Shown piece by piece: positions 2,853 through 62,088 of a DNA stretch of 64,000 nucleotides. Origin of the DNA: a virus. Where the stretch lies: the UHGV virus genome UHGV-0277313; one strand, written 5' to 3'. The notes below the pieces were generated by a model, which made no database searches, was not told the DNA's origin, and was given only the letters and a program-made list of their open reading frames with translations. The position numbers and the translations under genes are program-made. Positions within the stretch are counted from its first letter, which is position 1. Every line of letters begins with the position of its first letter.

Positions 2853-2854
2853 TT

Positions 2855-3115: not shown

Positions 3116-3173
3116 AAGGTTCTTCATTGATAGTCTATTTGCTTTTGGCTAAAGCAATTAAAGTAGAATTATC

Positions 3174-3485: not shown

Positions 3486-3492
3486 GATTGTC

Positions 3493-4410: not shown

Positions 4411-4421
4411 AGGTTTTCGTC

Positions 4422-5027: not shown

Positions 5028-5065
5028 AAACTTCACACAAATCAATGAAATTTTAAGAAAAACAC

Positions 5066-5094
5066 TTGCAAAATTTCATCATTTGAGTTAATAT
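5066..5094 (+). promoter_or_regulatory. sigma70-like promoter (TTGCAA-N17-TAATAT) upstream of tnpB
   Basis: The hexamers with a 17-nt spacer are read directly from the sequence. Confidence 0.45.
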
Positions 5095-5123
5095 ATTAAA
5101 TTGAGAAAAGAAGCAAGAGAAAA

Positions 5124-6311: not shown

Positions 6312-6330
6312 AATTGGAGACTATAGCGGG

Positions 6331-8081: not shown

Positions 8082-8132
8082 GGGTTTGTTCTTTAATTCA
8101 GTTGTTTTTAATTTCTATTTAGGTGATTTAAT

Positions 8133-8954
8133 ATGTCTGAAGATAAAAAAGATATTGCCGGTGAATGGATTAGATTTAAACTTCAAGAAGCTTTAAAAAA
8201 AGATCCTTTGTATAAAGACAATGAAGAAAAGAAAGCTGTCATGAAAGATGATGAAGTCGATGTGCATGACGGGATTTCTGATTTTTTGTCACGTGTCTTA
8301 TCAAAAGATGACATTAAGAAATTCAATTATCTTAATGGGTTCAATCCAGAAAGAGAAATACATAAAGAAGTTGTTCCAAATCCTGAAAAAGAAAAGATTA
8401 AAGAATCTGTTTCTATTAAAGAAGATGGTGCAGATAATGTGGAAAACACGTCTGTTGCAAACGAGGATGAAGCTTCTGCCGTTTCAAATGTAAGTAATGT
8501 TGAGAGTGATTCAAAAGATGAATCAGGTGATTTAGATGCGACTTTAGATGTTACTGATGTTGATAACAATTCAGATGATGAAAGCGCTGATGAGTCAAGC
8601 GAGCCTGAAGAAGTAAAAAATAAGGGCGTTGGGGCTTTTGACCGCATTCTTGAAAAATGTGAAAAAGATGAAATCTTATCAAAAGCTATTGCAGCTTTGA
8701 ACGAGCCTGATATTGCTGAAGCAAGAAAATCTTTTTATGGTTGGTTCGATTCGTTTGACGATGAACATTCTTCAGAAGAAGTACCAACAGAAGATGAAAC
8801 TGTTTCTGATACTGATGAAGATTCAGAAGAAGATAAAGCTGCTGATGAAAAGCCAGTTGAAAATGCAGAAAACAGTACTGATGCTGGAAATGAAGAAGCT
8901 AAAAATAATTCCGAACAAGAAGATTCATCAGCTTTAGATGATTTGTTTGCATAA
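8133..8954 (+). CDS. highly acidic Asp/Glu/Ser-rich protein
   Basis: 273 aa with very low pI and low complexity. The ORFs nested within it are artefacts. Confidence 0.55.
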   Translation: MSEDKKDIAGEWIRFKLQEALKKDPLYKDNEEKKAVMKDDEVDVHDGISDFLSRVLSKDDIKKFNYLNGFNPEREIHKEVVPNPEKEKIKESVSIKEDGADNVENTSVANEDEASAVSNVSNVESDSKDESGDLDATLDVTDVDNNSDDESADESSEPEEVKNKGVGAFDRILEKCEKDEILSKAIAALNEPDIAEARKSFYGWFDSFDDEHSSEEVPTEDETVSDTDEDSEEDKAADEKPVENAENSTDAGNEEAKNNSEQEDSSALDDLFA

Positions 8955-29905: not shown

Positions 29906-32281
29906 CTATTCTTCACGTTTACCATAAAAACCGTTGCCGACAAAATACTTGCTTTTGAAATCCATATTTGGGCAAGGATCTTCAAATTCAAGCTTCAGTG
30001 AAATAAGTTGTGTCGGGACTTCAATAGGTAACTCTTCACGTTCTTCTGGAGGGATAGGGTCACCTTCTTTCATCTCAAGTATTTTGTAGTCGTATGCTTC
30101 ATCAAGTTCACGTTTTAAATAATCCCAATTGCAGTTGCCTCCCTTGATATTTAAAATGAATTTACCATCCTTCTCTTCAAAAGATTTAATATCCATTTCA
30201 CGTCCCCATGATTGACCTAAACCAAAATCAATGAACATTTTGTTTCCGTTCATCCAATCATAAATAACATTTGGTACCGTACCTGCATGAAATTGACAAA
30301 TCTTAAAAACTGGAATTAATTCACCTGGGTATATGTCAAGATATGTTGAATCATGAACACCACCAATCATTACTGATTGTAAATCGTGCATCAACATCTC
30401 TTCTGCAATATGTGTACCTGCAATCCATGCCATACGGCTAGCGGATGAATTGTGTACAAAAACACCAGCTTCTAATGCGAAATTGTGTGTATTTTCATTG
30501 TTTTCAACTTCAATATCATATACTGAAATTTTGTTTGGTAGTTTAATTACTTCAACAGATGTAACTTTATGGTTGTTGAATAATTCTGCTACTAAACGTT
30601 CATAATTTTCTTTTGAAAAGTGCGGAACACTTGAAGCTCTAGCTCCTTCATTAATATAAGACAATCTGTATTCTTCAAAAATATTTTCGAAAGAAGAATC
30701 TAGTAATATATTTTTACCAAGTTTTTCAATAATTTTTAAAGAAAGTTTTTTGAACTTATAAAAAGTTGTATTCTTTCCACATTTTCTGATATTATTTTTC
30801 ATATGCTGTATCTTTTCTAGATCATTACCTTTCCAAATTTTATTTATTGTTTTTCTGGCAGATTCAGACAATTGTTCTTTAGACATACAGAATGCATTTC
30901 CATATGTTTCAATGCGTTTTTTTACCAAAGCTTTAACTGCTTCTCTTTGGTTAAAATCCCAATCTTTATAAAGTTCTTTTCTTTTTTTATTTTTTTCAGC
31001 CATTAATTTAGATTGTTTTTCAGAATGTTCTTGTGTTAAAAAATGTTTCCAAATATTGTTTTCACGTTTGCCTTCTCGTATTTCACGTACACGTTTTTGA
31101 GTGTCAATACTACGTTGTTTTGAAGTATATTTCAAACCCATTTGACGTAAATATTCGTGAACAGATACACCTGTCAGGTCAGCATGTCTTTTAATAGTAG
31201 ACATTACAAGAGATGAATGATATTTTATATGTTCTGCCTTATCCATAATAAGTAAATTATCAGGGTTGTTGTTTAATTTGTTGAAATCTTTGTGATGTAC
31301 TGCTTCATTTTTTTCAATAGTACGATCATAATATTTACTTACTATACGATGTACAGAGGCCCAAGGTTTTGTAGTTAAATCATTTCTTTTAACATATTTA
31401 TACCCTAACTTGTCATATTTTGTATAACAAGGCATTAAGCTTTCATTATTTTTTAAATCGATAGCATGTTTATATGTTCCATCCCTTAACATAAACTGGT
31501 GTTCAGGTGTGCATGTAATAATTTCGCCAGAATCTAATGTAACTTTACAAATTGTGTCAGTTTCTCCAGATTTAAAAGCGTTAATAATTTTGCCAGGTAT
31601 AATTTTACCATCATTACAACAAGATAAAACATACTTATTTTCAAAATTATTCACAAGGTTTTGAATTTCAACAACACTGCCATCTAATAAAGGTATTTTA
31701 GTATCACCAACAAAACATTGGATCCCACTATTCTGGCTTGCATTCATAGCATGATTCAACAACTTCCTGTTGCTTTTAGTGTCAGGCAACATTGCATCTG
31801 GTAACGGTCTAGTACAACCAAATACGTCAACAATATATCCATGCTCACGGGCGAACTTGTGTTGATATTCAACGTATGTTTTAATACCAGGGTATGCCCC
31901 CATCATTTTATCAATAGTTTCTTGAGCTTCTTCGACAGTGCATCCCCACTCTTTTGAAAAGTTGTAGGCTGATTTTCCATAGAGTAGACCAAACATTGTT
32001 GACTTCGCCTTTGAACGCAACCCAGAGTGGTGTTCTTTAATTTCTTTATCACTCATGTTTTTTAGTTCAGGAAAAATATTTCTGGCCGTATTACAATGCA
32101 GATCAGCACCTGACAGTAGTACATCTCGAAGTGTTGGATCACAACTAATAGCTGAAAAAATTCGAATTTCCAAAGTACTGTAGTCGTACGAAACTATTAT
32201 ACCACCACCGTTGTGTCTTGTCAAGCTTTTTATTTTCTTTTTTGCAAAATTTTTATTTTTTATTTCCATTTTTCTAGCCAA
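29906..32281 (-). CDS. family-A DNA polymerase, C-terminal half (motifs A, B, C) interrupted by an intein
   Basis: Motif A DYSTLEIRIF, motif B KSTMFGLLYG and motif C VHDS are present. An insertion from Cys189 to ...VHN is followed by SSAS. Confidence 0.8.
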   Translation of the reverse strand: MARKMEIKNKNFAKKKIKSLTRHNGGGIIVSYDYSTLEIRIFSAISCDPTLRDVLLSGADLHCNTARNIFPELKNMSDKEIKEHHSGLRSKAKSTMFGLLYGKSAYNFSKEWGCTVEEAQETIDKMMGAYPGIKTYVEYQHKFAREHGYIVDVFGCTRPLPDAMLPDTKSNRKLLNHAMNASQNSGIQCFVGDTKIPLLDGSVVEIQNLVNNFENKYVLSCCNDGKIIPGKIINAFKSGETDTICKVTLDSGEIITCTPEHQFMLRDGTYKHAIDLKNNESLMPCYTKYDKLGYKYVKRNDLTTKPWASVHRIVSKYYDRTIEKNEAVHHKDFNKLNNNPDNLLIMDKAEHIKYHSSLVMSTIKRHADLTGVSVHEYLRQMGLKYTSKQRSIDTQKRVREIREGKRENNIWKHFLTQEHSEKQSKLMAEKNKKRKELYKDWDFNQREAVKALVKKRIETYGNAFCMSKEQLSESARKTINKIWKGNDLEKIQHMKNNIRKCGKNTTFYKFKKLSLKIIEKLGKNILLDSSFENIFEEYRLSYINEGARASSVPHFSKENYERLVAELFNNHKVTSVEVIKLPNKISVYDIEVENNENTHNFALEAGVFVHNSSASRMAWIAGTHIAEEMLMHDLQSVMIGGVHDSTYLDIYPGELIPVFKICQFHAGTVPNVIYDWMNGNKMFIDFGLGQSWGREMDIKSFEEKDGKFILNIKGGNCNWDYLKRELDEAYDYKILEMKEGDPIPPEEREELPIEVPTQLISLKLEFEDPCPNMDFKSKYFVGNGFYGKREE
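30449..31717 (-). mobile_element. intein with HNH homing-endonuclease domain inside the PolA C-half
   Basis: The insertion starts CFVGDTKIPLLDGS and ends FVHN followed by S. It contains the HNH motif VHHKDFNKLNNNPDNLLIMDKAEHIKYH. Host motif B precedes the insertion and motif C follows it. Confidence 0.65.
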
Positions 32282-38539: not shown

Positions 38540-39040
38540 TTAAATTTTATCTAAAACGTCTTCATAGCTTTTAAAAACAATATCGCTTAGTGCATCTTTT
38601 GCGTTGTAGTATGTTTTGCAATAGTCATGCTCAAAGTCAATTGGTTCATTTATTTGATGTTTGCAAAAATCTTTTGTTTTGGGTTCGTATAGAAGAAAAG
38701 TTGTAGGAAGTCTAACAACTAACATTGGAGGATTTTGTTCAGTTGCACTTTTCCATGCAAAGAATTGTACTATAAATCCTTTGTATTGTTGTTTGATAAA
38801 AGAAGACATTTCATTAAATAAATCATAGTCTGTATCAAAATAAATTGTTGTACTATCAGTGTCTTCAGTAAAGCTTTTGATTGTTTCAAAATTAGCGAAA
38901 TTGTCTTCAAAATTTAGTTCGTTAGTTAAATTGTCTTTAGAAATAGTTAGACAGATAGCTTTACCGTTAATCGCATAGTAGCTAAACAGATAATAGACGT
39001 CATCAAATTTTGATTCATTGCAAACTTTAAAATATTCCAT
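38540..39040 (-). CDS. paralog family protein 1 of 7
   Basis: C-terminal ..YEDVLDKI and shared internal blocks. Confidence 0.55.
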   Translation of the reverse strand: MEYFKVCNESKFDDVYYLFSYYAINGKAICLTISKDNLTNELNFEDNFANFETIKSFTEDTDSTTIYFDTDYDLFNEMSSFIKQQYKGFIVQFFAWKSATEQNPPMLVVRLPTTFLLYEPKTKDFCKHQINEPIDFEHDYCKTYYNAKDALSDIVFKSYEDVLDKI

Positions 39041-39049
39041 AAAAATCCT

Positions 39050-39529
39050 TTAAATTTCATTAAGAACATCTTGATAGCTGAACATTTCAGGTGATTTCAA
39101 TGCATCAGAAACAGTATCATAGTATTCAATGATTTTAAAATTTTCTGTATTCTTTCCAGACCATAGCGGTTTGGCATCAAAATCATTTGCTAATCTATAT
39201 ACTTGAACAGCATCAATGTCAATTATAATTATTGAAGTATGCAACAAACCAATCACAGTGTGTCCGGTATTTTTATCAAGTAATGTGCAAATTACAGGTT
39301 CAATATTATTTTCCTCTAAAGTATCGTCTAAATGTGACAGCATTTCTTTCAAGGAATTGTTGTGAATAATTTTATATTCTTTATTTGGAATTTTAGAAGG
39401 AAATATATATAGACGATTGTCGTCTATATAAAGTGCTTGAACTGTTGTTGTATCTTCTGTTTTATTAAACACTTCTAAAACATAAATAATATTTTTTGAG
39501 AAGATAATATCAAATTGTTTTATTTGCAT
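39050..39529 (-). CDS. paralog family protein 2 of 7
   Basis: C-terminal ..YQDVLNEI. Confidence 0.55.
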   Translation of the reverse strand: MQIKQFDIIFSKNIIYVLEVFNKTEDTTTVQALYIDDNRLYIFPSKIPNKEYKIIHNNSLKEMLSHLDDTLEENNIEPVICTLLDKNTGHTVIGLLHTSIIIIDIDAVQVYRLANDFDAKPLWSGKNTENFKIIEYYDTVSDALKSPEMFSYQDVLNEI

Positions 39530-39541
39530 GTCCTGTTCCTT

Positions 39542-40054
39542 TTAGATTTCGTTTAAAATGTCAATATAATTTTTAAAGATAGGATCTTGAAAGGCGTCTT
39601 CTATGTTTGTATAAAGTTTAACATAATTATTTTCATCTTGTAATTTAGATTCAGCGCTTGTTGAACTTAAGACTTCGAACTTTTTACTGTTTGGTGAATA
39701 AATTAAATATTGGTCATCAATGTTAATTAACAATTTTGGTTTACTGTATGCACTATCACAAAATACAAATACGTCAGAAGTATTAAGCTTGAATATTCTT
39801 TTATACGATTGTTGTATGTCATTCAACATTTCAACATCTGTATCAAAATCTGTTTTGACATAATCGTCCAAATGTTCGTCAGTAAAGTTTTTAATAATCC
39901 AGATGTTAGCATGGTGATAATCACGATTATTTGTTGTAAGAGAGAAGTTTAATGTGTTGTTAACTTCAACACCTTCAATAACATAAAATGTAATGAATGT
40001 GTCAAGTACATCAATAGTTTGTCTTGTTTTTGAATACTTACAATATTTTGTCAT
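39542..40054 (-). CDS. paralog family protein 3 of 7
   Basis: N-terminus MTKYCKYSKTRQT, C-terminus FQDPIFKNYIDILNEI. Confidence 0.6.
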   Translation of the reverse strand: MTKYCKYSKTRQTIDVLDTFITFYVIEGVEVNNTLNFSLTTNNRDYHHANIWIIKNFTDEHLDDYVKTDFDTDVEMLNDIQQSYKRIFKLNTSDVFVFCDSAYSKPKLLINIDDQYLIYSPNSKKFEVLSSTSAESKLQDENNYVKLYTNIEDAFQDPIFKNYIDILNEI

Positions 40055-40080
40055 TGTTATATTCCTATTTAAATTTCGTT
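40017..40080. repeat. 64-bp repeat, copy A (identical to 41567..41630)
   Basis: gtttgtcttgtttttgaatacttacaatattttgtcattgttatattcctatttaaatttcgtt spans the gene start, the intergenic spacer and the neighbouring gene's end. Confidence 0.85.
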
Positions 40081-40584
40081 AAGTACATCAACATAGTTTT
40101 TAAAAATAGGATCGTTGAAAGCTTGCAGAATATCACTGTATTCTCGTATGTAATAATCTTCATTTTGAAGTTTCATGTTTAAAAGATATCGTGACGTAAA
40201 AAAGATTGTTTGTTTTTTAGGTGTATAAACTAAAGAATTGTTTTTATAATTTATAGCAATATTTGGTATACTTTTAAGTGATTCAGCATATACCATAATG
40301 TTGTTTGTATCAATATTATTTGCTTTCTTTATGGAATTTTCAAGATCTTCGAACATTTTGATGTCATTGTCAAAATCAACCTTCTGTAAATTTTCATTTG
40401 GAGTTTTAGGGTCGAAATTAAAACTTTGCGAAATGAGTAAATCATAGTAGTTATCTTTTTTATAATAAGTCAATAAAGTTTGAATTACACTACATTCGTT
40501 GTTCGTTGAAATACAATAATAGCTTTCATACATATCAACAAATTGTAAATGCTCTTCTCGATAATATTTATAAAAATTGCTCAT
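40069..40584 (-). CDS. paralog family protein 4 of 7
   Basis: C-terminal FNDPIFKNYVDVLNEI. Confidence 0.6.
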   Translation of the reverse strand: MSNFYKYYREEHLQFVDMYESYYCISTNNECSVIQTLLTYYKKDNYYDLLISQSFNFDPKTPNENLQKVDFDNDIKMFEDLENSIKKANNIDTNNIMVYAESLKSIPNIAINYKNNSLVYTPKKQTIFFTSRYLLNMKLQNEDYYIREYSDILQAFNDPIFKNYVDVLNEI

Positions 40585-40593
40585 GTCAAACCT

Positions 40594-41100
40594 TTAAATT
40601 TCATCTAAAACATTTATATAACTTAAAAAGATTGGATCTTTAAAAGCATCTGAAATATCACTATATGTCTTAAAATAATCATATTGTTTATTGATTTCTT
40701 CTCGAATGTTGGCAACAAAATCCAAAATGATATTTTTATAAATTGGGGAGTATATCAAAATATCATTTTCAATAGGTATAATGATTTTAGGAGTTTCTTT
40801 CAGATCTGCCATTTGCCAGACATATACTTCATAATTCTTTATTTTATACATATCTGTATATAAACGTTGTATATCTTCAAATAATTCGACATCACTTGAA
40901 AAGTTGATTCTTTTATAATCATTATCTAAACTATTAAGAATTTGTATGTTGCTGCTAGTGTTGACAACATACCCATTAGAACCGTCAACGTATTGTGAAC
41001 ATACAAAAGCAAAACATTGTTTATCAATCACATAAAAATTTCTTACGTGATGTCCGCTTTTATTTGTATTCTCAAAAACATATTTACAAAATTTTGTCAT
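40594..41100 (-). CDS. paralog family protein 5 of 7
   Basis: C-terminal FKDPIFLSYINVLDEI. Confidence 0.6.
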   Translation of the reverse strand: MTKFCKYVFENTNKSGHHVRNFYVIDKQCFAFVCSQYVDGSNGYVVNTSSNIQILNSLDNDYKRINFSSDVELFEDIQRLYTDMYKIKNYEVYVWQMADLKETPKIIIPIENDILIYSPIYKNIILDFVANIREEINKQYDYFKTYSDISDAFKDPIFLSYINVLDEI

Positions 41101-41604
41101 TTAAATCTCGTTTAATACGTCAATGTAATTTGTGAATATTAAATCTTTTAAAGCAGTTTCAACAAAGTTGTATTTTTGATGATAGGCAATCTCATTTTCA
41201 TCAAACCATTGATCAACGACATATCCACTGACAGCATTAACATCGTCTGTTGCAGGTGTATATATAATAGCGTCACTTTGAATGAACATTATAAGTTTAG
41301 GTTTAGAATAGATATCATTGAATTGAATTACTAAATTCTCAACTGTCTTCTTTTCATAAAAGCTTTTATATTGATTTTGTAAATCAGAAAACAACTCTAT
41401 TGCATTATTAAAATCTGTTTTGTTTTTTTCATCTAAAGAGACAATAATTTCATCCGCATTTCCTGAAGTAATATTATATGTAGGAAAGACACGCTCAACA
41501 GAAAATTGTACTAAAATATATTTTTTATTAATAATATAATAGGCTGTATAATGTTTTCCTGTATTTGTTTGTCTTGTTTTTGAATACTTACAATATTTTG
41601 TCAT
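41101..41604 (-). CDS. paralog family protein 6 of 7
   Basis: N-terminus MTKYCKYSKTRQT, C-terminus ..NYIDVLNEI. Confidence 0.6.
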   Translation of the reverse strand: MTKYCKYSKTRQTNTGKHYTAYYIINKKYILVQFSVERVFPTYNITSGNADEIIVSLDEKNKTDFNNAIELFSDLQNQYKSFYEKKTVENLVIQFNDIYSKPKLIMFIQSDAIIYTPATDDVNAVSGYVVDQWFDENEIAYHQKYNFVETALKDLIFTNYIDVLNEI

Positions 41605-41630
41605 TGTTATATTCCTATTTAAATTTCGTT
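41567..41630. repeat. 64-bp repeat, copy B
   Basis: Identical to copy A when read by eye. Confidence 0.85.
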
Positions 41631-42137
41631 TAAAACATCAATGTAATTTATAATAGAAGGGTCTTTGAAAGCTTCAGCAACTGTTTCATAACGTTTCAAA
41701 TATACAGCATCTTCTGTCATAAATTTAGGTATTTTGGTTGCTTTTATACTATTAACAGAATCATTCTCAAATGAATAGTAAAAACTATAATCAGTATCAT
41801 TTATTGCAAATAATATGGCAGGACGCTTGTTAATATCGGTTAAAATAACAAAAATTTGTAAAGGTAAATTTTCGAAATGTTTTTTAAACCCATTGACAAA
41901 GTCTTTAAACAATTCCTCAACATTATCAAACATGATGGTTTTATAATCTAAAAATGAAAGAGGTACATCTAGTGTAGGTGATGTATGTACGTCATATTTT
42001 AAATAATCATCTTTTAAATACTTTGTAAAAACAGATATAAATGCCGTTTTGTTAACTATGTATTTATTATATTCAGATTCTTCTTTAAATCGTGACGAAG
42101 TTGCTTCTTCATAATATTTAAAATATAGATTATTCAT
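41619..42137 (-). CDS. paralog family protein 7 of 7
   Basis: C-terminal FKDPSIINYIDVLNEI. Confidence 0.6.
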   Translation of the reverse strand: MNNLYFKYYEEATSSRFKEESEYNKYIVNKTAFISVFTKYLKDDYLKYDVHTSPTLDVPLSFLDYKTIMFDNVEELFKDFVNGFKKHFENLPLQIFVILTDINKRPAILFAINDTDYSFYYSFENDSVNSIKATKIPKFMTEDAVYLKRYETVAEAFKDPSIINYIDVLNEI

Positions 42138-49046: not shown

Positions 49047-49530
49047 ATGATTGTTGGTAAAGGAAAATTTTAAAGTCCATGAAATGTTTATAAAAAAATT
49101 CGTGAAGTTGAAAAATTGTGTGCACTTTAATAATAGGTAATGATAAGTGGTGCTTTGCGATAAAAGAAATGCTTTATGATAAAAAATAAAGAAAGATTAT
49201 AATAAAAGATAACTATAATAATGGTAAAAGAAAAAGAGAGTATTATAATGGGATGAATGAAAGTTAATGTTGTGTGAGTGATGATTAGGATGGGGTGATT
49301 TTGGTATGCAGGGAAAATGATGTATGAAGTAGTGAAGATGAAGACAGTAAGAGATGAAAGATATTAGTCTGAAGAAAGGGTAAGATGATTGGGGAAATGA
49401 GTGTGGGGGTTATGTGGTGGCAAAAGGTGAAGAAGATGAAGAATATGAATAACGGCGATGTTTATGGTGTTGCATGAAAATTGGATGAATCGAAGAGTAT
49501 TGTGTATTCTATCTCGTGCCTGTTTTTCGG

Positions 49531-49559
49531 TATAACTATATTATCGAAAGGGAATAGAG
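49531..49559 (+). repeat. repeat unit ataactat(att)atcgaaagggaatagag, copy 1
   Basis: Second copy at 49743..49765. Confidence 0.6.
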
Positions 49560-49713
49560 CAGATAGGAAAACGGCAAGCGGGGCGCAAGCCCCTATACCG
49601 AAAGCCTTATTGACTATATAGGGATATATAGTAGAGTTAGGTATAAGGAAATCAGTATAACAGGCTTGATAGGTAGTTAATACCGAAAAACCCGCTTGCC
49701 GTTAAAATTCCTG

Positions 49714-49742
49714 TTGACAAGTTTCTGATTTTTTGATAGTAT
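49714..49742 (+). promoter_or_regulatory. sigma70-like promoter TTGACA-N17-TAGTAT
   Basis: Predicts a transcript starting at repeat copy 2. Confidence 0.45.
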
Positions 49743-49765
49743 ATAACTATCGAAAGGGAATAGAG
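49743..49765 (+). repeat. repeat unit, copy 2
   Basis: ataactatcgaaagggaatagag. Confidence 0.6.
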
Positions 49766-50549
49766 GATAAACAGGGATTTAAGGTATCAGAGGAAACTGG
49801 TATCATAGGTAAAGCTTTTATTAAGCATTGTTTGACATATAAGACAGTGTTTAATAAAAGCTTTATTTGTTAATGGTACGGTATCCGATACCTGATAAAC
49901 AGTTAAGCTGTTGTATCACTTGTTAATAAAGAGTGGTATAGCGGGTTAACGACCTTTAATCAGTCATTATAAAGTGGTAAAGCAAAGTAATGACGAAATG
50001 ATTAAAGGAATTATCAGGTTCACGTGTGAAAAAGAAAGCACGGCGGAACTATATACAGAATAAATAAAGTGAATGAAATGTCGTTTCAATTTTGTTGAGT
50101 TTAGAAACGACTGAAAACTTTAATCTTAAAATCAATTAAGGTTAAAGTGAAACAATCTATATTATTTAATATAGATTTAAACAGTTAAGGCAAGACTGAA
50201 AAGAAATGCCTTGATAGGTAATAACTCAACGGGATCAAATTCCCTTAATGAAAATAGATGAATTAAAAATAGTTTGTTTATTTTTCGTTAAGGGTGAAAA
50301 TACGGTGGTGAGCCAATCGACAAAAAGTTTCACGACCGTAAAACAAACCGTCTGAAATGGTTTGGATTTGTCTAGGTCAGTTTACTGATTTGAACTCACT
50401 CCTGCTTTAAGTGTATGTGAGAAGTAGGCTGTGGAACAAATCTGTATTGAAATAGATTACTCTAAGTCATTTCAGATATTTTAAGAACAGATTGGAATAA
50501 ACTAAAATAGAATGAAATGGTTTATTCCGAAACAAGAAAGGAAAAGAAA

Positions 50550-50963
50550 ATGATTAGAAACTTCACGCCGCATAAAATCAATCTGTTCGCCGAAGACGGC
50601 AGAATATTGAAAGTATTCGAGCCGGAAGGGCTTGCAAGGGCGGAACAAAAGGCCATCATCGTTGACGAAATTCAATTCGGGAACGACATTGTTCCCGTCA
50701 AAAAGATGATTTTCGGGAGCGTCGAAGGACTTCCCGAAACGGCGGGAGAATACGATAAATTTATCGTGTCGTCCATCGCCGCACAGGCGGCGATGGAGAC
50801 GAACCATCCGTTGAAAAATCAGCTCTTGGTCGTTGCAGACCCTGTTCGCAACGAAGACGGACAAATTATAGGCTGTAAAGCCTTTTCGACTTTCCGAGAT
50901 GAGAATGATCTCGGCGAGATTATGAGCTTGGCTAACAAGCTCAACGACAAATACGCTCGGTAA
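50550..50963 (+). CDS. hypothetical protein (first gene of the higher-GC module)
   Basis: SD AAGGAAA upstream of MIRNF. Confidence 0.55.
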   Translation: MIRNFTPHKINLFAEDGRILKVFEPEGLARAEQKAIIVDEIQFGNDIVPVKKMIFGSVEGLPETAGEYDKFIVSSIAAQAAMETNHPLKNQLLVVADPVRNEDGQIIGCKAFSTFRDENDLGEIMSLANKLNDKYAR

Positions 50964-50970
50964 TATTAGA

Positions 50971-51010
50971 TTTAACAAGGTGGGAGTTGTCCAGATTCCC
51001 ACCCTTTAAA
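50971..51010 (+). promoter_or_regulatory. conserved intergenic stem-loop element, copy 1
   Basis: TTTAACAAG, then stem ggtggga ... tcccacc, then CTTTAAA. Confidence 0.55.
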
Positions 51011-51054
51011 TCTATTCCACAGTGGGGTGGATCCAACCAGAAAGGGAAAATAAT

Positions 51055-51348
51055 ATGACAATCAAAAAAGAAAAAAATTTCACCGTCACCGTAACTTACT
51101 TCAATGATTATAAAGGGGAATGGGTGACTGTTCCCCTGTCCGAAGCCCCGGACGAGTTGATAAACCCGTCTGCAACCGTGGCAGATATTGCCAATATGCA
51201 CGCTGAAATGCGTGCAAGTTTAAAGGCGTTGTACGACGCCTACGATGAAATGGAGCAAATAGAGTATCAGGAATGGTACTCTGAACAACAGGCGGCGGCG
51301 CAGAAAGCCGCCGAAATAGAAATGGCGTACAAACAAAGGTACGCCTAA
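51055..51348 (+). CDS. hypothetical protein
   Basis: RBS AGGGAAAA. Confidence 0.5.
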   Translation: MTIKKEKNFTVTVTYFNDYKGEWVTVPLSEAPDELINPSATVADIANMHAEMRASLKALYDAYDEMEQIEYQEWYSEQQAAAQKAAEIEMAYKQRYA

Positions 51349-51398
51349 ATGTTAATGATAGGACAAGATTGGACAGAAATTGTTTAGTCTTGCCCTAT

Positions 51399-51449
51399 CT
51401 AGTTTCATTTAGTGTAACTAGTTTTTATAATTGCACTAAATGAAACTAG
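51399..51449 (+). promoter_or_regulatory. 16-bp perfect inverted repeat (operator-like) flanking a TATAAT hexamer
   Basis: ctagtttcatttagtg - N19 containing TATAAT - cactaaatgaaactag. Confidence 0.55.
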
Positions 51450-51484
51450 ATCAGAGTGATCTAGTACAGCAAGGAGTTGCAAAA

Positions 51485-51832
51485 ATGAAAGCACAAAATT
51501 ACACATATAGAACGCCGTTCGGAGACGAACTGGCGATCATAACAGGAAAATCAGCAGCACGGGGACGTGATAACCTTCGCAACACCCGCAAAGCCCTAGC
51601 AGCTGCAAACGATATCATATCCACTTTACAAGCGGATGTTAAAGAAAGGCACGCTTGTACAGTTCGTTTGCGTCTTCGCAAGAACAAAGAAATTGCCAGT
51701 TTGTTGGCAGAGGTTGCCAGTTTGAAAGCTGAAAATGAAGCTTTGAAAGATGCGGCGGAGATGTGGCAAACTATTGCCAAATCGAGTGTGACGGCATCTG
51801 GAGAGCTGTTGGATGCTCTCGAAAATGACTAG
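51485..51832 (+). CDS. hypothetical coiled-coil protein
   Basis: SD AAGGAG. LKAENEALKD coiled coil. Confidence 0.55.
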   Translation: MKAQNYTYRTPFGDELAIITGKSAARGRDNLRNTRKALAAANDIISTLQADVKERHACTVRLRLRKNKEIASLLAEVASLKAENEALKDAAEMWQTIAKSSVTASGELLDALEND

Positions 51833-51835
51833 ATT

Positions 51836-51880
51836 GAATTTAACAAGATGGGGATTTGAATAAGATCCCCATCCTTTAAG
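51836..51880 (+). promoter_or_regulatory. conserved intergenic stem-loop element, copy 2
   Basis: TTTAACAAG, stem gatggggat/atccccatc, then CTTTAAG. Confidence 0.55.
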
Positions 51881-51904
51881 TTCAACTAATGAAAGGAAAC
51901 AGAA

Positions 51905-52198
51905 ATGAATATGGAAAAATACAACTATCGTTTCGGGGCAACAATGACCGAGATTATCAAAAATCTCGGTGTTGAAACGGCATTGCCAAACCCTGATTTG
52001 TCTCTGACGAACTTGACACGTGCTGTCAAGACGCACGTGCTTCAAACGCTTGAAAAAGACGGAAAGCAATACGTTATCGTCTCTGATTGCGGCGAGTATG
52101 CTATCGCCGAAATTAAGGCGATTGGTTCTGCGGAAGATGTTGCCAAATTCGTCAAAGAAAATGACTTGGGAGAGGAGTTGATCTCCGAAGTCATTTAA
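51905..52198 (+). CDS. hypothetical protein
   Basis: SD AAAGGAAA. Confidence 0.55.
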   Translation: MNMEKYNYRFGATMTEIIKNLGVETALPNPDLSLTNLTRAVKTHVLQTLEKDGKQYVIVSDCGEYAIAEIKAIGSAEDVAKFVKENDLGEELISEVI

Positions 52199-52202
52199 TC
52201 AG

Positions 52203-52247
52203 CTTAACAAGGTGGAATTGAATTTGATTTAGTTCCACTCTTTAAAC
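52203..52247 (+). promoter_or_regulatory. conserved intergenic stem-loop element, copy 3
   Basis: CTTAACAAG, stem ggtggaa/ttccact, then CTTTAAAC. Confidence 0.5.
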
Positions 52248-52272
52248 TGATTTTTAATTAGGGGGTGCGCAA

Positions 52273-52476
52273 ATGATAAAAAAGATCTTGAAGTTTATGA
52301 ATGATGAAATGATGATCCGTTATGACATAATGTATCCCATAGAATATGGGTACATTGAGAACGGTAAAGTGATATGTTCGAAATGGCGTGCACGGCGTCG
52401 TTTGGTCATTGATTGGTTTTTCGACGTGTGGATGAAAGGCCTTTCTGCTTACTCTTTGAAGAAAGTTGAGGAGTGA
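52273..52476 (+). CDS. hypothetical protein
   Basis: RBS GGGGGTG. Confidence 0.5.
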   Translation: MIKKILKFMNDEMMIRYDIMYPIEYGYIENGKVICSKWRARRRLVIDWFFDVWMKGLSAYSLKKVEE

Positions 52477-52481
52477 TTAAA

Positions 52482-52751
52482 ATGAAGCAATTCGAAATAA
52501 AGATTGTCAATGAACTTTGTGGTGTGCCAGACGAGATGTCGCCTGATACATCACTGACAGCATCACTAAAAGTTGCTATTAACTTTTACGAATGCATTGT
52601 GGAATATCTGTATTTTTCCTATATGCGATTGGAGAATTCGAATTTTCTGAAACGTCCGTGGTGGATGTTTTGGAAAAGTAAAGAAGAATACTTTCGGGAA
52701 CAATACATTCTCGATCGTAAAAGAAGAGGATTAGATCGAAATGCTTTATAG
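52482..52751 (+). CDS. hypothetical protein
   Basis: SD GAGGAG. Confidence 0.5.
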   Translation: MKQFEIKIVNELCGVPDEMSPDTSLTASLKVAINFYECIVEYLYFSYMRLENSNFLKRPWWMFWKSKEEYFREQYILDRKRRGLDRNAL

Positions 52752-52968
52752 TCTTCTTTTAATTGCGGTTGTTTTGTCAACGACTGCCTTTGTGTGTTAC
52801 AGTATGATTTCTGATTTTATTCAGAAACCGTACAGAAAAGAAAATTCGGGGAAAGTTTTGGTTGACAGAAGTTATTTCCCCGAAAAACGAACCGTTCGTC
52901 CTGAATTGGTCGCCTTGGCAAAAAGGTTGTCGATTGAGGATGAACTTGATTACAGAAGATGGAAATGA
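52741..52968 (+). CDS. small membrane protein
   Basis: TM segment LLLIAVVLSTTAFVCY. Confidence 0.45.
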   Translation: MLYSLLLIAVVLSTTAFVCYSMISDFIQKPYRKENSGKVLVDRSYFPEKRTVRPELVALAKRLSIEDELDYRRWK

Positions 52969-53057
52969 ATGCTTCTGTAATAGTTGTCACTGAATTTGGT
53001 GTGCTAAATAGTAAGTGAGGAAAATTCTTCCTTACTTTACTTTTAAGGAGAAAGAAA

Positions 53058-53249
53058 ATGGTGAAATTCAAGAATACAAAATTTGTTAATTGGTGTTATT
53101 ATCACTGGAAACAGTTGAGGGGCACATTAACAAAGACAGACATCGCTGTTCATTGTGCTATTTTCAATAACCAAAAAGTTGTTGAATTGCACGCGGCTCA
53201 ATTGAAACCGTCTGATTATACAGGCGTTGTGAAAAGAGGTGTAAGATGA
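53058..53249 (+). CDS. hypothetical protein
   Basis: SD AAGGAG. Confidence 0.5.
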   Translation: MVKFKNTKFVNWCYYHWKQLRGTLTKTDIAVHCAIFNNQKVVELHAAQLKPSDYTGVVKRGVR

Positions 53250-53464
53250 GTAGTTTTATCAAAATCGACTATGGTATCGTGAGAAAAGAATCGATTTCTG
53301 GTTTAACAAGGGCAAAGGGACAATACCCTTGGAACGGGAAGACGCACTGGGACATCGAAGTGCATCTTCAAGGCACAAAAGTGTGTTTGGAATTTGATTC
53401 GGAATTTGAACGAAACACGGAGTTCAGCCGAATTGCAAACGAACTCAAAAAAGAGGGTGATTAA
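53246..53464 (+). CDS. hypothetical protein
   Basis: Overlapping start and stop. Confidence 0.5.
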   Translation: MSSFIKIDYGIVRKESISGLTRAKGQYPWNGKTHWDIEVHLQGTKVCLEFDSEFERNTEFSRIANELKKEGD

Positions 53465-53465
53465 A

Positions 53466-53978
53466 ATGGCCAAACAAATTGAAGATTACACAGCGGATGA
53501 ACTGTCCGCGAAGATTAAGGCGATTAAGGCGGAACGCGAACGCACGGCAAATGCACTCAAGCGATATGAGGAAGAACTGGAACGGAGGAAAAACAAAAAC
53601 TGGCTTCCGTTGAAAGAAGAAGTTAACTTTACCATAAATAAGCTAACCCTTAGTACAGCTTGTATCGAAATAAAAGTTCGAGAAGGATTTTATGATGAAG
53701 ATTCGTTTCATAAATATCTTTCCGCCTTAAAATCCATTAGAAAGGCGTGGTTTGCTAATTCTAAAGGCGAACCGATTGATATTGAAGTTTTGAAGCCGTT
53801 ATTGCGGAAAGGCTGGGTTGCAATGGATAAAGACGGGGGTTGGTATTGGTATGAAAAAAAGCCGCGTAGATCGTATGCCAATTGGGGGACTGGGATTTGC
53901 CTTTCTAGAACTCTGGAAGGTTTCAATATCAAACCCGTAGAAAATTGGGAAAACAGTTTGCAGGAGTGTGGGTCATGA
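53466..53978 (+). CDS. hypothetical protein
   Basis: SD AGAGGGTG upstream of MAKQIEDY. Confidence 0.55.
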   Translation: MAKQIEDYTADELSAKIKAIKAERERTANALKRYEEELERRKNKNWLPLKEEVNFTINKLTLSTACIEIKVREGFYDEDSFHKYLSALKSIRKAWFANSKGEPIDIEVLKPLLRKGWVAMDKDGGWYWYEKKPRRSYANWGTGICLSRTLEGFNIKPVENWENSLQECGS

Positions 53979-54220
53979 AAAAAGATGAAAAGATATTCCT
54001 GCAAGCACGAAACCAAAAGAAGATGAAGCTTAACAAATGGTGGAAAAAGCTTCTGGAAAAATACCCTTTTATGGGATATGAACATGGAAGCATGAAATAT
54101 CTTTCTATAATGGGAAAAGATACAGGGCTTAAAATAAATTCACCAAGGTTGATTAAAAAGAACATCCTGAAACGGTCAAACGACCAAACCAAGTGGATTG
54201 TAGGAGGTGGGAATGAATAA
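53975..54220 (+). CDS. hypothetical protein
   Basis: SD AGGAG, ATGA overlap. Confidence 0.5.
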   Translation: MKKDEKIFLQARNQKKMKLNKWWKKLLEKYPFMGYEHGSMKYLSIMGKDTGLKINSPRLIKKNILKRSNDQTKWIVGGGNE

Positions 54221-54461
54221 TCCTATAATCATTGACGTTGAATGGAGAGAAGTTTCCTGTTCAACGGAAGCGGTTATTGAACCGAAAGTAATGGTTCAGA
54301 AACAAAAGTGGAACAAGGTGGATAAAGTGATATTCACCTTGTTTTATTCAGAAATCGCCTTTATTGTTCTGCGGTTCATGTATGAGTGTTATACAAATTA
54401 CATGTTCTGGTCTGAACATGGTGGTGTAACTTTACATAAGGTGTTCTTTGGAATGCCTTAA
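54213..54461 (+). CDS. hypothetical protein
   Basis: SD AGGAGGTG. Confidence 0.5.
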   Translation: MNNPIIIDVEWREVSCSTEAVIEPKVMVQKQKWNKVDKVIFTLFYSEIAFIVLRFMYECYTNYMFWSEHGGVTLHKVFFGMP

Positions 54462-54471
54462 GGAGAAAACA

Positions 54472-55275
54472 ATGTTAACTATTGAAAAATTGAAAAAAAT
54501 CGCATCCACATGTCCTTATGGTGGTTGGTTGGCAGTAACCGAAGGTACTGGTGAACTTGTGTGGTCATGGTTTAAAAGAAAACCGTATTTTAACGGTGAT
54601 GCTTGGGTGCGAGACGAAGATGAAGACGTAGAATGCTGTGAAGTATTTGATTGGCTCAACGAGCAGGGTGTAAAGTGGCATCAACTTGATGACTTGCTCG
54701 ACTTGATTGATACATCACCGGAAAGCGTTTGCATCAAGTGTGGAACTGCTAAAAAACAAAAACCTTTTAAACCGATTATAGACAAATTGAAACCGGAGAT
54801 AAAAGATGGCTTTCTGTGTGATGACGGTAAGAACATTTATTGGTCACCGGGTAATTTTGGTTTCGAAATCGCAGACCAAAATTTGGCATTCCCTGAAAAT
54901 GAATTCGTTTTCAAATTGGTGAAAAAACCTAAGGGGACGAAATATTGTCATACAAAAGAAAAGACGGTGATGATGTGCAGGGGCAATGGTTACCGTACTG
55001 TATATTTGTTCTCAACATTTAAAATGTTTGAGACAAATCTTTGCGAACAAAAGGTGTCGTTTGACGATTTGAATAAAGACTTCGCAAAAATTGAAAAAGG
55101 CACGGTAAGTTTTGCAAAGGTGTACCGTGATTACGGAACGTGGGGGTCTCCGAAATGGGTCGAGTGTAATAAAGAAGATTACATTCGCATTGTTAAAGAT
55201 TTTGACGAGTACAGCAAAACTTGGAAAGCAAAATACGACGAAGACCAAAAACAGTTAAAACTGGTTCACTTGTAA
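54472..55275 (+). CDS. hypothetical protein (Cys-rich)
   Basis: SD AAGGAG. Confidence 0.55.
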   Translation: MLTIEKLKKIASTCPYGGWLAVTEGTGELVWSWFKRKPYFNGDAWVRDEDEDVECCEVFDWLNEQGVKWHQLDDLLDLIDTSPESVCIKCGTAKKQKPFKPIIDKLKPEIKDGFLCDDGKNIYWSPGNFGFEIADQNLAFPENEFVFKLVKKPKGTKYCHTKEKTVMMCRGNGYRTVYLFSTFKMFETNLCEQKVSFDDLNKDFAKIEKGTVSFAKVYRDYGTWGSPKWVECNKEDYIRIVKDFDEYSKTWKAKYDEDQKQLKLVHL

Positions 55276-55297
55276 CAACAAAGGAGAAAAACGAGAG

Positions 55298-55678
55298 ATG
55301 TTAGAAAAAATCAAAAAAGAGATGGGTTTCGAATTCATGGATTTGGAACCCTTGTTCTACGAGGCTGTCTTAAGCCTTGAATTCGTACCGAACCCGTATG
55401 GCATTGTACGGGTGTTAAGTGCGCTCGACATGAAAAACATCTGCACGTGGGCGGACAGATGGATTGAGGGCATCGAGGAATTCAATCAATACCGCGAAAA
55501 AAAGTACGCGGCAAACACCTTGGAAAAGTTCAAGACGTTTGCCGAAATGTTGTATTCGGAACTGGAGAGCGACAGTGAAAAGAAGACGTATTTTATTTAT
55601 ACGCCTTCTGAAGAAGCAATCAATGCGTTCAAAAAAGAAAACGGGATTGCCGAAGACGACGACGGACTTCAGTGGTAA
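55298..55678 (+). CDS. hypothetical protein
   Basis: SD AAAGGAG. Confidence 0.55.
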   Translation: MLEKIKKEMGFEFMDLEPLFYEAVLSLEFVPNPYGIVRVLSALDMKNICTWADRWIEGIEEFNQYREKKYAANTLEKFKTFAEMLYSELESDSEKKTYFIYTPSEEAINAFKKENGIAEDDDGLQW

Positions 55679-55722
55679 ATTTAACAAGAAGTGCATTGGG
55701 GTTACTGATGCACTTCCTTTAA
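55678..55722 (+). promoter_or_regulatory. conserved intergenic stem-loop element, copy 4
   Basis: TTTAACAAG, stem gaagtgcat/atgcacttc, then CTTTAAG. Confidence 0.55.
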
Positions 55723-55751
55723 GTTTACAACATCAACAAAGGAGAAAGATC

Positions 55752-55973
55752 ATGAAACGTATGGGTCGTGAATTTTACAGAACGGGAAAAATCGAAGCAC
55801 AGAATGATGTGCTGAAAGGACGGTATGCGATTTATAAAACCCGTCAAGGGTTGGAAATCGTTTTTCATGAGTCGTATCGTGCGGACATTATGTCTGACAT
55901 TGAACGACAGATTGAAAAGAACCCGCGCGGAACGTGGTATTGTGAAAAGAAATATCACGTACTCAAGAAGTGA
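55752..55973 (+). CDS. small hypothetical protein
   Basis: SD AAAGGAG. An internal start is chosen within the longer frame. Confidence 0.5.
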   Translation: MKRMGREFYRTGKIEAQNDVLKGRYAIYKTRQGLEIVFHESYRADIMSDIERQIEKNPRGTWYCEKKYHVLKK

Positions 55974-56043
55974 AATTATAAAGAAGACATCTGAAATATG
56001 GTGTCTTCCTATAATTTCACTTGACAAGGAAAGGAGTAAGACG

Positions 56044-56214
56044 ATGAAAAAACAATTTCACAGATTACTTCTGACAAAGAGTCAGATGGAAAAACAAGCT
56101 AGACTGTATGCTGAACAGTTTGGCGATGATTATGATGAAGCTTTTGACGAGATGATAAAGTCTTGCCAAAAGTATAACAAATTTATTCTAGAAGGGAGTA
56201 AATGTGATGAATGA
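56044..56214 (+). CDS. small hypothetical protein
   Basis: SD GGAAAGGAG. Confidence 0.5.
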   Translation: MKKQFHRLLLTKSQMEKQARLYAEQFGDDYDEAFDEMIKSCQKYNKFILEGSKCDE

Positions 56215-58461: not shown

Positions 58462-58507
58462 TTGACAAACATCAGGTGATTGTATATAAATTATACAGTC
58501 ACCTGAT
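58462..58507 (+). promoter_or_regulatory. sigma70-like promoter (TTGACA-N17-TATAAA) overlapped by a 16-bp near-perfect palindrome
   Basis: The palindrome is atcaggtgattgtata / tatacagtcacctgat, matching 15 of 16 positions. Confidence 0.6.
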
Positions 58508-58520
58508 ATGGAGGTTAAAA

Positions 58521-60646: not shown

Positions 60647-60691
60647 TTGACAAACAACGAGTAACCGTATAGATATAGTGTCTATACGGTT
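60647..60691 (+). promoter_or_regulatory. promoter-like TTGACA-N17-TAGATA with an 11-bp perfect inverted repeat
   Basis: The inverted repeat aaccgtataga - N7 - tctatacggtt overlaps the -10 region. Confidence 0.55.
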
Positions 60692-60726
60692 TTGTTATAC
60701 AACCCAAACTTAAAGGAGTAATTATC

Positions 60727-62025
60727 ATGGGTATGTCTTTTAACGAATCGATCAAAGCCATTGACACCATTCGTGCTTGCACGATCAACAACGGAGCGTC
60801 GATTGTTCCGTTGCTGTTGGGTGAAACAGGTATTGGTAAAACCGAACTGGTTCGTGAATATTGTCAAGAGAACAACTTGACGTTGATTACAATTCACGTT
60901 TCGCAGATTGAACCGTCTGACTTGACTGGCTTGTTCAAAATCAACAAGTACGGTAAGACGGATAACTGTTCACCGTCTTGGTTGCCGTGGCTGTCTGAAG
61001 CCGAGTTTGCGAAAATTCAAGAAAGCGGTGCCGTCGAGGTGGAAGTGTTGAATACCTTGAAAGAAGGTGTCATTAACCCGAACGGTGGTATCGTCTTTTT
61101 GGATGAAGTCAACCGTGGTCATGAAGACATCAGACAGTCTTTGTATCAGCTGATTAACGAACGTCGTATGCATACGTTCACCTTGCCGAACAATTACACG
61201 ATTGTGGCAGCGGCGAACCCGTCAAACGGTTATGAAACGTATGACTTCGATAGAGCGTTGGTCAACCGTTTCGCATGGATTGATTTTCAACCGAAAGCGA
61301 AAGAAACTGTTGATTACTTGACGGGTAAGTATTCGACTTCGCCTGTGGTTCAATGGTTGAAGAACAACGAAGAAATGATTGAACTGTGTGCTGTTGACAA
61401 GAATGGTGCGCCGATTTCGAATGACATGGACGATCAGAAAACTATGTCACCCCGTATTTTGGAACAGGGTATCATCTTGTTGGAAGAAATGCACCGTCGT
61501 CATTATCCGCAGAAGTTGAAAAATCAGATTTTGCGGTCAATCTGGAAGAAGAGCGATGTGGAAAGCTACTTGTCTTTCGATGAAGAAGCTGAAAACGCTA
61601 TTGAACTGGAAGACATCTTTACCGGAAAATGGAAGGAACCTGTCAAGAAGTATGTTGAACAACAGAAACTTGATTTGTTGTCGGTCATTGTTTCCCGTAT
61701 GGCGCGGTTCTTTGTTGATTATGAATTCAGCAAGCCGCGTACTGACAAGGAAAGCAAAATGGTCGAGAACGTGGTCGCTTTCTATCACGCCGTTCCTGAA
61801 GAATTGTGTGTAACGTTCTTGAGTGCTTGCACGAATAAATACTTTGAGACGAAAGATGGTCGGAAGTATTTCGGCAAGAATTGCAAGGACGGCAAGTTGA
61901 TTGTCAATGAACATCACTTGTGCATGCAGCCGGAATTTTCTGGTGGCAAAACACAGTATTCCGACAAGGAAATCGGTTCGGTTTTGAAAGGTTCGAAGAA
62001 CATCGGAGCCGCAACGAATAAGTAA
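60727..62025 (+). CDS. MoxR-like AAA+ ATPase (AAA_5/CbbQ-GvpN family)
   Basis: Walker A GETGIGKT, Walker B IVFLDEV, and AAANP...ALVNRF sensor motifs. Confidence 0.75.
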   Translation: MGMSFNESIKAIDTIRACTINNGASIVPLLLGETGIGKTELVREYCQENNLTLITIHVSQIEPSDLTGLFKINKYGKTDNCSPSWLPWLSEAEFAKIQESGAVEVEVLNTLKEGVINPNGGIVFLDEVNRGHEDIRQSLYQLINERRMHTFTLPNNYTIVAAANPSNGYETYDFDRALVNRFAWIDFQPKAKETVDYLTGKYSTSPVVQWLKNNEEMIELCAVDKNGAPISNDMDDQKTMSPRILEQGIILLEEMHRRHYPQKLKNQILRSIWKKSDVESYLSFDEEAENAIELEDIFTGKWKEPVKKYVEQQKLDLLSVIVSRMARFFVDYEFSKPRTDKESKMVENVVAFYHAVPEELCVTFLSACTNKYFETKDGRKYFGKNCKDGKLIVNEHHLCMQPEFSGGKTQYSDKEIGSVLKGSKNIGAATNK

Positions 62026-62033
62026 AACAAATA

Positions 62034-62067
62034 AAGGGAAGGAGTTGAAACATATTCCTTCCCTTTT
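62034..62067 (+). terminator. rho-independent terminator
   Basis: gggaagga ... tccttccc followed by TTTT. Confidence 0.55.
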
Positions 62068-62088
62068 CACAACATTAAGGAGAACACA

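Follow-up and report, generated by a model that had tools for sequence, protein, structure and literature searches.

The stretch of DNA analysed here (the window) comprises 64,000 nucleotides of the virus genome UHGV-0277313, and the elements with which we are concerned are five hairpins lying between small genes at 50.9-56.0 kb. The window is part of a very large genome, of about 280-310 kb, from an uncultivated phage. A 276,920-bp metagenomic scaffold encodes one of its proteins with no difference in sequence, and close relatives are found on contigs of 297-313 kb, including NCBI LR756497.1. The proteins of the window include a family A DNA polymerase with an intein and an HNH domain, NrdD, an SbcC-like ATPase, a 5'-3' exonuclease and a TnpB/Cas12f-like protein. 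The guanine-plus-cytosine (GC) content rises from about 30% before 50 kb to about 40% after it. From 44.4 kb to past the end of the window all genes lie on the + strand, and strong Shine-Dalgarno (SD) sequences are found on the genes. The five elements are all on the + strand as well, within the first 5.5 kb past a 1.4-kb non-coding region with structured repeats and with candidate promoters of sigma-70-like type, one of them being TTGACA-17-TAGTAT with an extended -10 at 49714. The features are listed here with folding free energies, z-scores and scores with the covariance model R1 (see below).

49100-50530, + strand: conserved 1.4-kb non-coding region directly upstream of the operon, 80-97% identical in relatives
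50550-56214, + strand: small genes of unknown function running in one direction, many of which overlap or closely abut one another, punctuated by the five elements (from the list of open reading frames (ORFs) and gene calls)
50967-51014, + strand: element 1, UAGAUUUAA / CAA / GGUGGGAGUU-loop-GAUUCCCACC / CU / UUAAAUCUA, after the stop codon (TAA at 50961) of a gene for 137 amino acids (aa); -23.0 kcal/mol, z = -6.1, 67 bits
51835-51884, + strand: element 2, inner stem GAUGGGGAUUU/AGAUCCCCAUC, after the stop codon (TAG at 51830) of a 115-aa gene; -24.4 kcal/mol, z = -5.7, 76 bits
52197-52252, + strand: element 3, 13-bp inner stem and UUG loop, with the stop codon (TAA at 52196) at the hairpin foot; -19.4 kcal/mol, z = -5.4, 58 bits
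55675-55728, + strand: element 4, inner stem GAAGUGCAUUGG/CUGAUGCACUUC, with the stop codon (TAA at 55676) within the outer stem; -23.3 kcal/mol, z = -6.7, 66.5 bits
55970-56020, + strand: element 5, diverged, GUGAAAUUAUA / AA / GAAGACAUC-loop-GGUGUCUUC / C / UAUAAUUUCAC, with the stop codon (TGA at 55971) within the outer stem; -24.0 kcal/mol, z = -8.2, 38 bits (E = 5e-6)

Searches of the small-gene run at 50550-56214 against PHROG and Pfam gave no informative match. Megablast of 50.0-56.5 kb against public phage genomes found no match, and a search for IMG/VR relatives through the 137-aa protein found none.

Anatomy and placement of the elements

The unit is a two-tier hairpin of 50-56 nt. 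In the four copies already reported by the first-pass annotation it folds at -19 to -24 kcal/mol, and dinucleotide shuffles put its z-scores at -5.4 to -6.7. The outer stem, of 4-7 bp, is variable and is followed by an invariant UUAA/UUAA box; an asymmetric internal loop (5'-CAA / 5'-CU) leads on to the inner stem, again variable, which has 10-13 bp and many G.U pairs at its top and is closed by a loop of 3-6 nt. The first-pass annotation had described a variable stem between conserved flanks. Its four copies are all present where it placed them and the stems that it quoted do pair, the third closing with a G.U pair, but the element that it outlined was too short: the sequence outside the boxes is also paired (AGAT/ATCT, TTGAAT/GTTCAA, AATCAG/CTGATT and GTAAAT/GTTTAC), and the supposed loops are mostly paired too. 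In each type an outer helix of 8-11 bp and an inner helix of 10-13 bp together make 18-23 bp, or about two turns. The 3x2 internal loop (CAA/CU) is kept in all four canonical types at 10-13 bp from the apical loop; in element 5 it is 2x1, and a variant from the relative L007 has a 1-nt bulge in its place.

The boxes of element 5 read TTATAAAG...CTATAA in DNA, or UUAUAAAG...CUAUAA in RNA, so that one A-U pair of the otherwise invariant UUAA box is swapped to U-A. This element is the sole member of the family in a more distant relative, L149 from IMG/VR (71-81% nucleotide identity), where the box has an intermediate form (UUAUCAAG...CCUAUAA).

The closeness of the elements to stop codons had been noticed earlier and holds, although the figure of 1-8 nt does not: the full hairpin starts between -1 and +6 from the first base of the stop codon, which therefore lies within the outer stem, at its foot or abutting it. 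From the end of the hairpin to the next ATG there are 20-40 nt. Between the end of the CTTTAAR box and the SD sequence there are about 12-30 nt, rather than the 30-50 nt previously given. Neither this slip nor the one concerning the extent of the element affects the interpretation.

In elements 1, 3 and 4 the TAA within the TTAA box is in frame with the upstream ORF and provides a back-up stop codon (50961-50975, 52196-52207 and 55676-55684); element 1, for example, reads TAA-TAT-TAG-ATT-TAA. In relatives, the TAA of the box is the actual stop codon of a 94-aa gene lying before element 2b, a paralogue of element 2 (L012, 2797-2802).

Copies, covariation and strand

The distribution of the elements was assessed in two ways. 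A simple pattern of the two boxes, TTAACAAG-N(15-40)-CTTTAA, has four matches, all on the + strand, where 100 dinucleotide shuffles lead one to expect 0.12; the description of a conserved-flank element is borne out by this excess. The 5' box alone, with one mismatch allowed, has 129 matches against 128 expected, which is chance level, and the signal therefore resides in the combination of both boxes with the helix. The covariance model R1, built from 11 variants (alignment A1), was then used in a filter-free scan of all 64 kb. It recovers the four reported copies at 58-76 bits and the fifth at 55970-56020. Nothing significant was seen by R1 in the AT-rich 50 kb, from which the element had been said to be absent, or in the next 10 kb past the window; a weak match (23 bits) lies at 62020-62072. 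Scanning of the window has thus added a further copy to those first described, and the shuffle expectation lies 30-fold below what is observed, so that the refuting outcome named in the first-pass annotation did not arise.

Elsewhere the boxes occur without the hairpin. A scan of IMG/VR with the flank pattern gave at least 120 matching stretches, and the 80 loci listed (730 kb) each match both boxes once, at the right spacing and by chance; among these 80 loci R1 has no match at E <= 1. No Rfam family was matched by the window as a whole at gathering thresholds, and in E-value mode the region 48.9-56.2 kb yielded only noise, in the form of microRNA and small nucleolar RNA models far below threshold.

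About a dozen distinct related contigs (given L-labels here) were obtained through homologues of the 137-aa protein, and elements are found at orthologous positions in all close relatives. The resulting set of 23 distinct sequences covers types 1, 2, 2b, 3 and 4, all of which fold to the same architecture. In their alignment (A3, with a 20-pair structure) standard pairs occupy 96.3% of the 460 cells, and two-sided changes are seen in 12 of the 20 pairs, five of which belong to the outer helix. Covariation scores 0.535, compared with 0.208 in shuffles, none of 500 of which reaches the observed value, and sliding the partners by 1-3 columns reduces pairing to 24-59%. Individual cases are clear: in the type 2 copy of L138 one G-C pair has become A-U and one A-U pair C-G, while one pair of type 2b passes from A-U (L009) through G.U (L143) to G-C (L005). 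Single changes among orthologues are mostly of the G.U type.

These G.U pairs also allow the two strands to be told apart. On the sense strand they occupy 18 distinct combinations of type and pair, whereas only three positions have the A.C that would be G.U on the other strand. The sense strand is, in addition, more stable than its complement in all five copies, by 1.5-6.9 kcal/mol. The G.U asymmetry and the better folding of the sense strand mean that it is the transcript, or in formal terms the sense single strand, whose structure is selected. Selection acts on RNA structure on the sense strand, and the earlier proposal that compensatory conservation reflects a function at the level of RNA structure is supported, and much strengthened, by the pairing, the two-sided changes, the shuffles and the G.U ratio of 18:3.

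The elements are also better conserved than their surroundings, with a mean identity to orthologues of 96.4% compared with about 85% in the 150 nt on each side. Element 1 keeps 93-96% identity in relatives in which its flanks fall to 41-85%, and element 3 is 100% identical in most relatives.

Proposed processing sites and the alternatives

The hairpins are a new RNA motif family; the kind of signal is one that is already known. Of the roles suggested by the first-pass annotation, which were processing sites, protein-binding regulatory hairpins and attenuators, the first appears to be the best supported by the anatomy. The reading that we think likeliest, held tentatively at somewhat less than even confidence, is that the elements may be sites between cistrons at which RNase III makes a single cut and which then act as 3' stabilisers. 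They would be cis-acting RNA hairpins in a polycistronic phage transcript, the genes presumably forming one transcript and the operon presumably being expressed early. The host's double-strand-specific endoribonuclease RNase III would read them, and the internal loop, by analogy with T7 and SP82, would confine cutting on the 3' side to a single phosphodiester. A stable hairpin able to block 3' exonucleases would then form the end of the upstream cistron, and the downstream cistron would begin about 30 nt ahead of its start codon.

Two helical turns are typical of substrates for Escherichia coli RNase III, and internal loops, as documented for T7, limit the enzyme to one strand or phosphodiester and leave a protective 3' hairpin (PMC1540722). 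Sites with internal loops in phage SP82 receive a single, downstream-side cut from Bacillus subtilis RNase III (PMC1935012). Set beside a substrate with a quasi-continuous helix of about 20-22 bp, the elements have 18-23 bp in every type, and an internal loop is conserved as 3x2 in the four canonical types. The covariation of the outer helix, with its five two-sided pairs, fits a long double-stranded RNA substrate, while a terminator has no need of it. We also count in favour of RNase III the fact that the elements are islands of conservation, and the fact that box matches elsewhere, in the 80 IMG/VR loci listed, come without the helix. Taken together, the lack of a U-tract, the selection on the outer helix and the two turns with a conserved asymmetric loop favour a double-stranded RNA signal over a terminator.

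The closest likeness is with the early RNase III sites of T7 (R0.3, R0.5, R1, R1.1 and R1.3), and the five early intercistronic regions of that phage were folded here for comparison. The cleavage coordinates marked on these folds are presumably those of Dunn and Studier (1983). Like the elements, the T7 sites lie between cistrons downstream of a promoter region (A1-A3 in T7) and are two-tier hairpins of about 55-65 nt with an internal loop. Upper and lower stems vary between copies yet always pair, and the flanks of the loop are conserved, as CUCAAGG...CCUUUAUGAU in T7 and UUAACAAGG...CCUUUAAR in the elements. The differences are that the internal loop of the elements is smaller (3x2) and the host unrelated, and that cleavage, documented for T7, is for the elements a prediction. 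The SP82 sites are likewise hairpins with internal loops in phage early mRNA, in the setting of a low-GC, SD-using host (PMC1935012). In the host-takeover region of SPO1, which served as proxy for the SP82 sites, the intergenic layout is different, consisting of a terminator, a promoter and a hairpin in the 5' untranslated region.

Several points weigh against processing by RNase III. R1 finds neither the T7 sites nor a match in SPO1, so that the link is one of analogy and not of homology: over T7 400-8200 there is no significant match, the best (10 bits, E = 1.3) lying off any R site, and the SPO1 host-takeover region gives none, which leaves the elements outside the T7 sequence family. The flank that is common with T7, CAAGG/CCUUUA, could be a coincidence. 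The exact conservation of UUAACAAG/CUUUAA exceeds the known needs of bacterial RNase III, and a sequence-specific protein would fit it equally. That the host is SD-using and Firmicutes-like we infer from the SD sequences alone, and the early operon and the single transcript are assumptions; promoter-like sites in the region are no commoner than in shuffles. Lastly, in two copies, elements 2 and 4, the inner hairpin followed by CUUUAAGUUU is flagged as terminator-like by a lenient scan (5 T in 8-10 bases).

The last of these points bears on a rather unlikely alternative, namely that the elements are leaky intrinsic terminators, attenuators or passive barriers to 3' exonucleases resembling repetitive extragenic palindromic (REP) elements. 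The GC-rich inner hairpin and its CUUUAARUYU tail would then stop some RNA polymerases, or stall 3' exonucleases, and so create a gradient of expression or stability without an endonuclease. Every copy does lie directly after a stop codon among co-directional genes, and REP elements near stop codons stabilise upstream mRNA in enterobacteria. As in Rho-independent terminators, a GC-rich hairpin past the stop codon is flanked by A-rich 5' and U-rich 3' sequences that are able to pair. The weak R1 match at 62020-62072, moreover, is an ordinary terminator of A-tract, stem and U-tract with a similar UUGAAA loop, from which it appears that the family may derive from terminators. Where an intrinsic terminator has a hairpin and then a U-rich tract, however, the full hairpins here are followed by AUUCC, CUAAUG, UUUAAU and AACAUC and the inner stems by CUUUAAR, in which the run breaks off after just three U's. 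The first-pass annotation was therefore essentially right to report no U-tract and to set the elements apart from classical intrinsic terminators. Other gaps of the same operon carry different signals, among them embedded promoters (58462 and 60648), a triple-hairpin region (51349-51484) and true U-tract terminators (62033 and 63372), and the presence of the last makes the missing U-tract of the elements a real difference. The outer helix covaries beyond the A/U boxes and is thus itself selected, which termination does not need, and a terminator does not explain why both boxes and the internal loop are conserved exactly. Less probable again, in our view, is a binding or cleavage site for a sequence-specific RNA-binding protein or endoribonuclease encoded by the phage. 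Such a protein, acting as a regulator of translation or stability or as a dedicated processing enzyme, would recognise the invariant junction UUAA-CAA-G / C-CU-UUAA on a helix of any sequence. This would suit the invariance of the junction in all four canonical types while both helices vary, the conservation of entire elements, loops included, above that of their flanks, and the UUG with which every loop begins; the neighbouring genes are all of unknown function and the partner could be among them. The ORFs scanned, however, yielded no RNA-binding or nuclease domain and no phage-encoded RNase III or RNA-binding protein. The supposedly invariant junction is altered in element 5 and in variants of L007 and L143 that nevertheless persist, and the UUG at the start of the loop pairs as the top of the inner stem.

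A quite different possibility, to which we attach very little probability, is that the elements act in DNA, as recombination sites or cassette boundaries through which accessory genes are gained, lost and shuffled. Gene content near them certainly varies. L006 lacks element 1 and the 97-aa gene that follows, L012 lacks the 67-aa gene directly after element 3, and L008 has a 677-bp insertion directly after element 4. An extra 94-aa gene followed by element 2b is found upstream of the 115-aa gene in L009, L012 and L143, and L005 carries both 2b and 2, as near-identical paralogues flanking one gene. L149 lacks two blocks, 50529-52272 and 54475-55737, and with them elements 1-4; both blocks end with an element, their junctions lying at a leader hairpin, at SD/ATG sequences or inside gene ends. 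The promoter-early stem-loops (PeSLs) of T4-like phages are similarly small intergenic stem-loops repeated among small variable ORFan genes and linked to gene indels between close relatives (PMC4122927, PMC2839356). Integron attC sites, too, lie directly 3' of a cassette ORF and form imperfect hairpins in which the outer boxes are conserved, the centre varies and some bases are unpaired, and the 5' box of the elements fits the attC R'' consensus RYYYAAC (ATTTAAC, GCTTAAC). From the two blocks missing in L149 and the conserved islands between diverged genes one might go further and suppose, though we think it most improbable, that the hairpins define the 3' ends of exchangeable gene cassettes in huge phages, as a hairpin-specified signal for recombination or insulation that travels with accessory genes. 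It is equally improbable, to our minds, that this would work in the manner of attC or PeSLs, possibly through folded single-stranded DNA or an unknown phage protein, with blocks inserting just upstream of the SD sequence. Against all this, indel junctions abut elements 1, 3 and 4 in some cases, but others lie at SD/ATG sites or inside genes. By a rough count, some 6 of the 24 breakpoint ends are no more than 10 nt from the edge of an element, which is about the elements' share of intergenic DNA and shows no clear preference, and no observed deletion is a simple element-by-element crossover. A PeSL combines a sigma-70-like promoter with a terminating stem-loop, whereas no -35/-10 pair lies beside any element (the nearest is a weak 9/12 match at 55724-55753) and the hairpin stands only 20-40 nt ahead of the next ATG. 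All copies have CTTTAAR as their 3' box, and not the GTTRRRY of attC, and the elements, at 50-56 nt, are much more regular than attC and favour the sense, RNA-like strand through their G.U pairs. No recombinase domain, and no integrase, was found among about 45 ORFs scanned with Pfam or PHROGs. The elements are associated with accessory genes, but there is no evidence that they are crossover sites.

A number of other readings were considered and rejected. A stimulator of readthrough or frameshifting is at odds with the further in-frame stop codons from the TTAA box in elements 1, 3 and 4 and with the lack of a slippery heptamer. A kink-turn or another named loop motif is discounted, the loop having no tandem G.A pairs. 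A miniature inverted-repeat transposable element with a TTAA target duplication does not fit, since complementarity and covariation extend outside the boxes. Hairpin promoters of the N4 type and promoters of the AR9/phiKZ type were provisionally set aside on spacing and motifs. A switch in which the 3' arm pairs with downstream sequence was weak, was seen in element 1 only and was dropped.

Other features of the window and significance

Further structures lie in and around the operon. One intergenic gap, 51349-51484, holds three strong hairpins in a row with a total of -51.5 kcal/mol: GATAGGACAAGA.../...TCTTGCCCTATC, which has two alternative loop versions among relatives; a palindrome at 51403-51445; and CTAGATCA-GAG-TGATCTAG. 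The palindrome consists of perfect 16-bp inverted repeats (CTAGTTTCATTTAGTG / CACTAAATGAAACTAG) around a 19-nt spacer with TATAAT, just upstream of the 115-aa gene, which has a weak bZIP-like match. In L006 (10497) and L007 (8290) the spacer is the exact reverse complement of that in the window and in about ten other contigs, so that this could be a tiny invertible promoter or operator, or else the product of a template-switch inversion in a quasi-palindrome. Downstream, promoter candidates at 58462-58510 and 60648-60695 have TTGACAAAC, a 17-nt spacer and TATAAA or TAGATA (TTGACA-N17-TAxAxA). Each sits in a long near-perfect palindrome with arms of 13-17 bp, which suggests that these promoters are operator-controlled. 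The hairpin at 62020-62072, which follows an AAA-ATPase gene, reads AAAGGGAAGGA-GUUGAAACAUAU-UCCUUCCCUUU and then UCAC; with its UUGAAA-type loop it may be an evolutionary cousin of the family.

The step in GC content from about 30% to about 40% coincides exactly with the non-coding region (at about 50000) and the high GC persists for at least 23 kb downstream; the same step is seen in L149, at its position of about 4000. Within the non-coding region a promoter-like sequence followed by ATCGAAAGGGAATAGAG is present in two copies (49523 and 49729). There are also nested long-range inverted repeats (49522-49533/49680-49691 and 49570-49582/49691-49703) and a 20-bp hairpin with a T-tract at 49814-49871. 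The structures in 49100-50530, which have no Rfam match, may be small structured RNAs.

Three groups of genes elsewhere in the window also deserve mention. On the - strand, 38540-42137 holds seven tandem ORFs of 159-172 aa, which are diverged paralogues with 21-43% pairwise identity and no Pfam or PHROG match. The polymerase appears to be split and intein-invaded, the regions concerned being 29906-32281 (- strand) and 11489-13876 (+ strand): one ORF contains the DNA polymerase A domain, an intein and an HNH endonuclease, and a separate ORF contains the 3'-5' exonuclease domain. At 5124-6311 (+ strand) a TnpB/Cas12f1-like protein (OrfB_IS605 and TNB domains) adjoins genes for a sugar-nucleotide epimerase and a glycosyltransferase.

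Current understanding is not overturned by the hairpins, but if processing by RNase III is the right explanation, an uncultivated phage of about 280-310 kb would punctuate a polycistronic operon of small genes as T7 and SP82 do. Processing or stability sites, whether for RNase III or for another enzyme, would then represent a convergent design in a very different group of phages. The elements mark cistron boundaries in a region where all genes are of unknown function, and the covariance model is ready for use in annotating such signals in related metagenomic phage genomes. Their compact and modular design, in which a conserved junction is combined with stems that are free to vary, could be tried in synthetic operon insulators.

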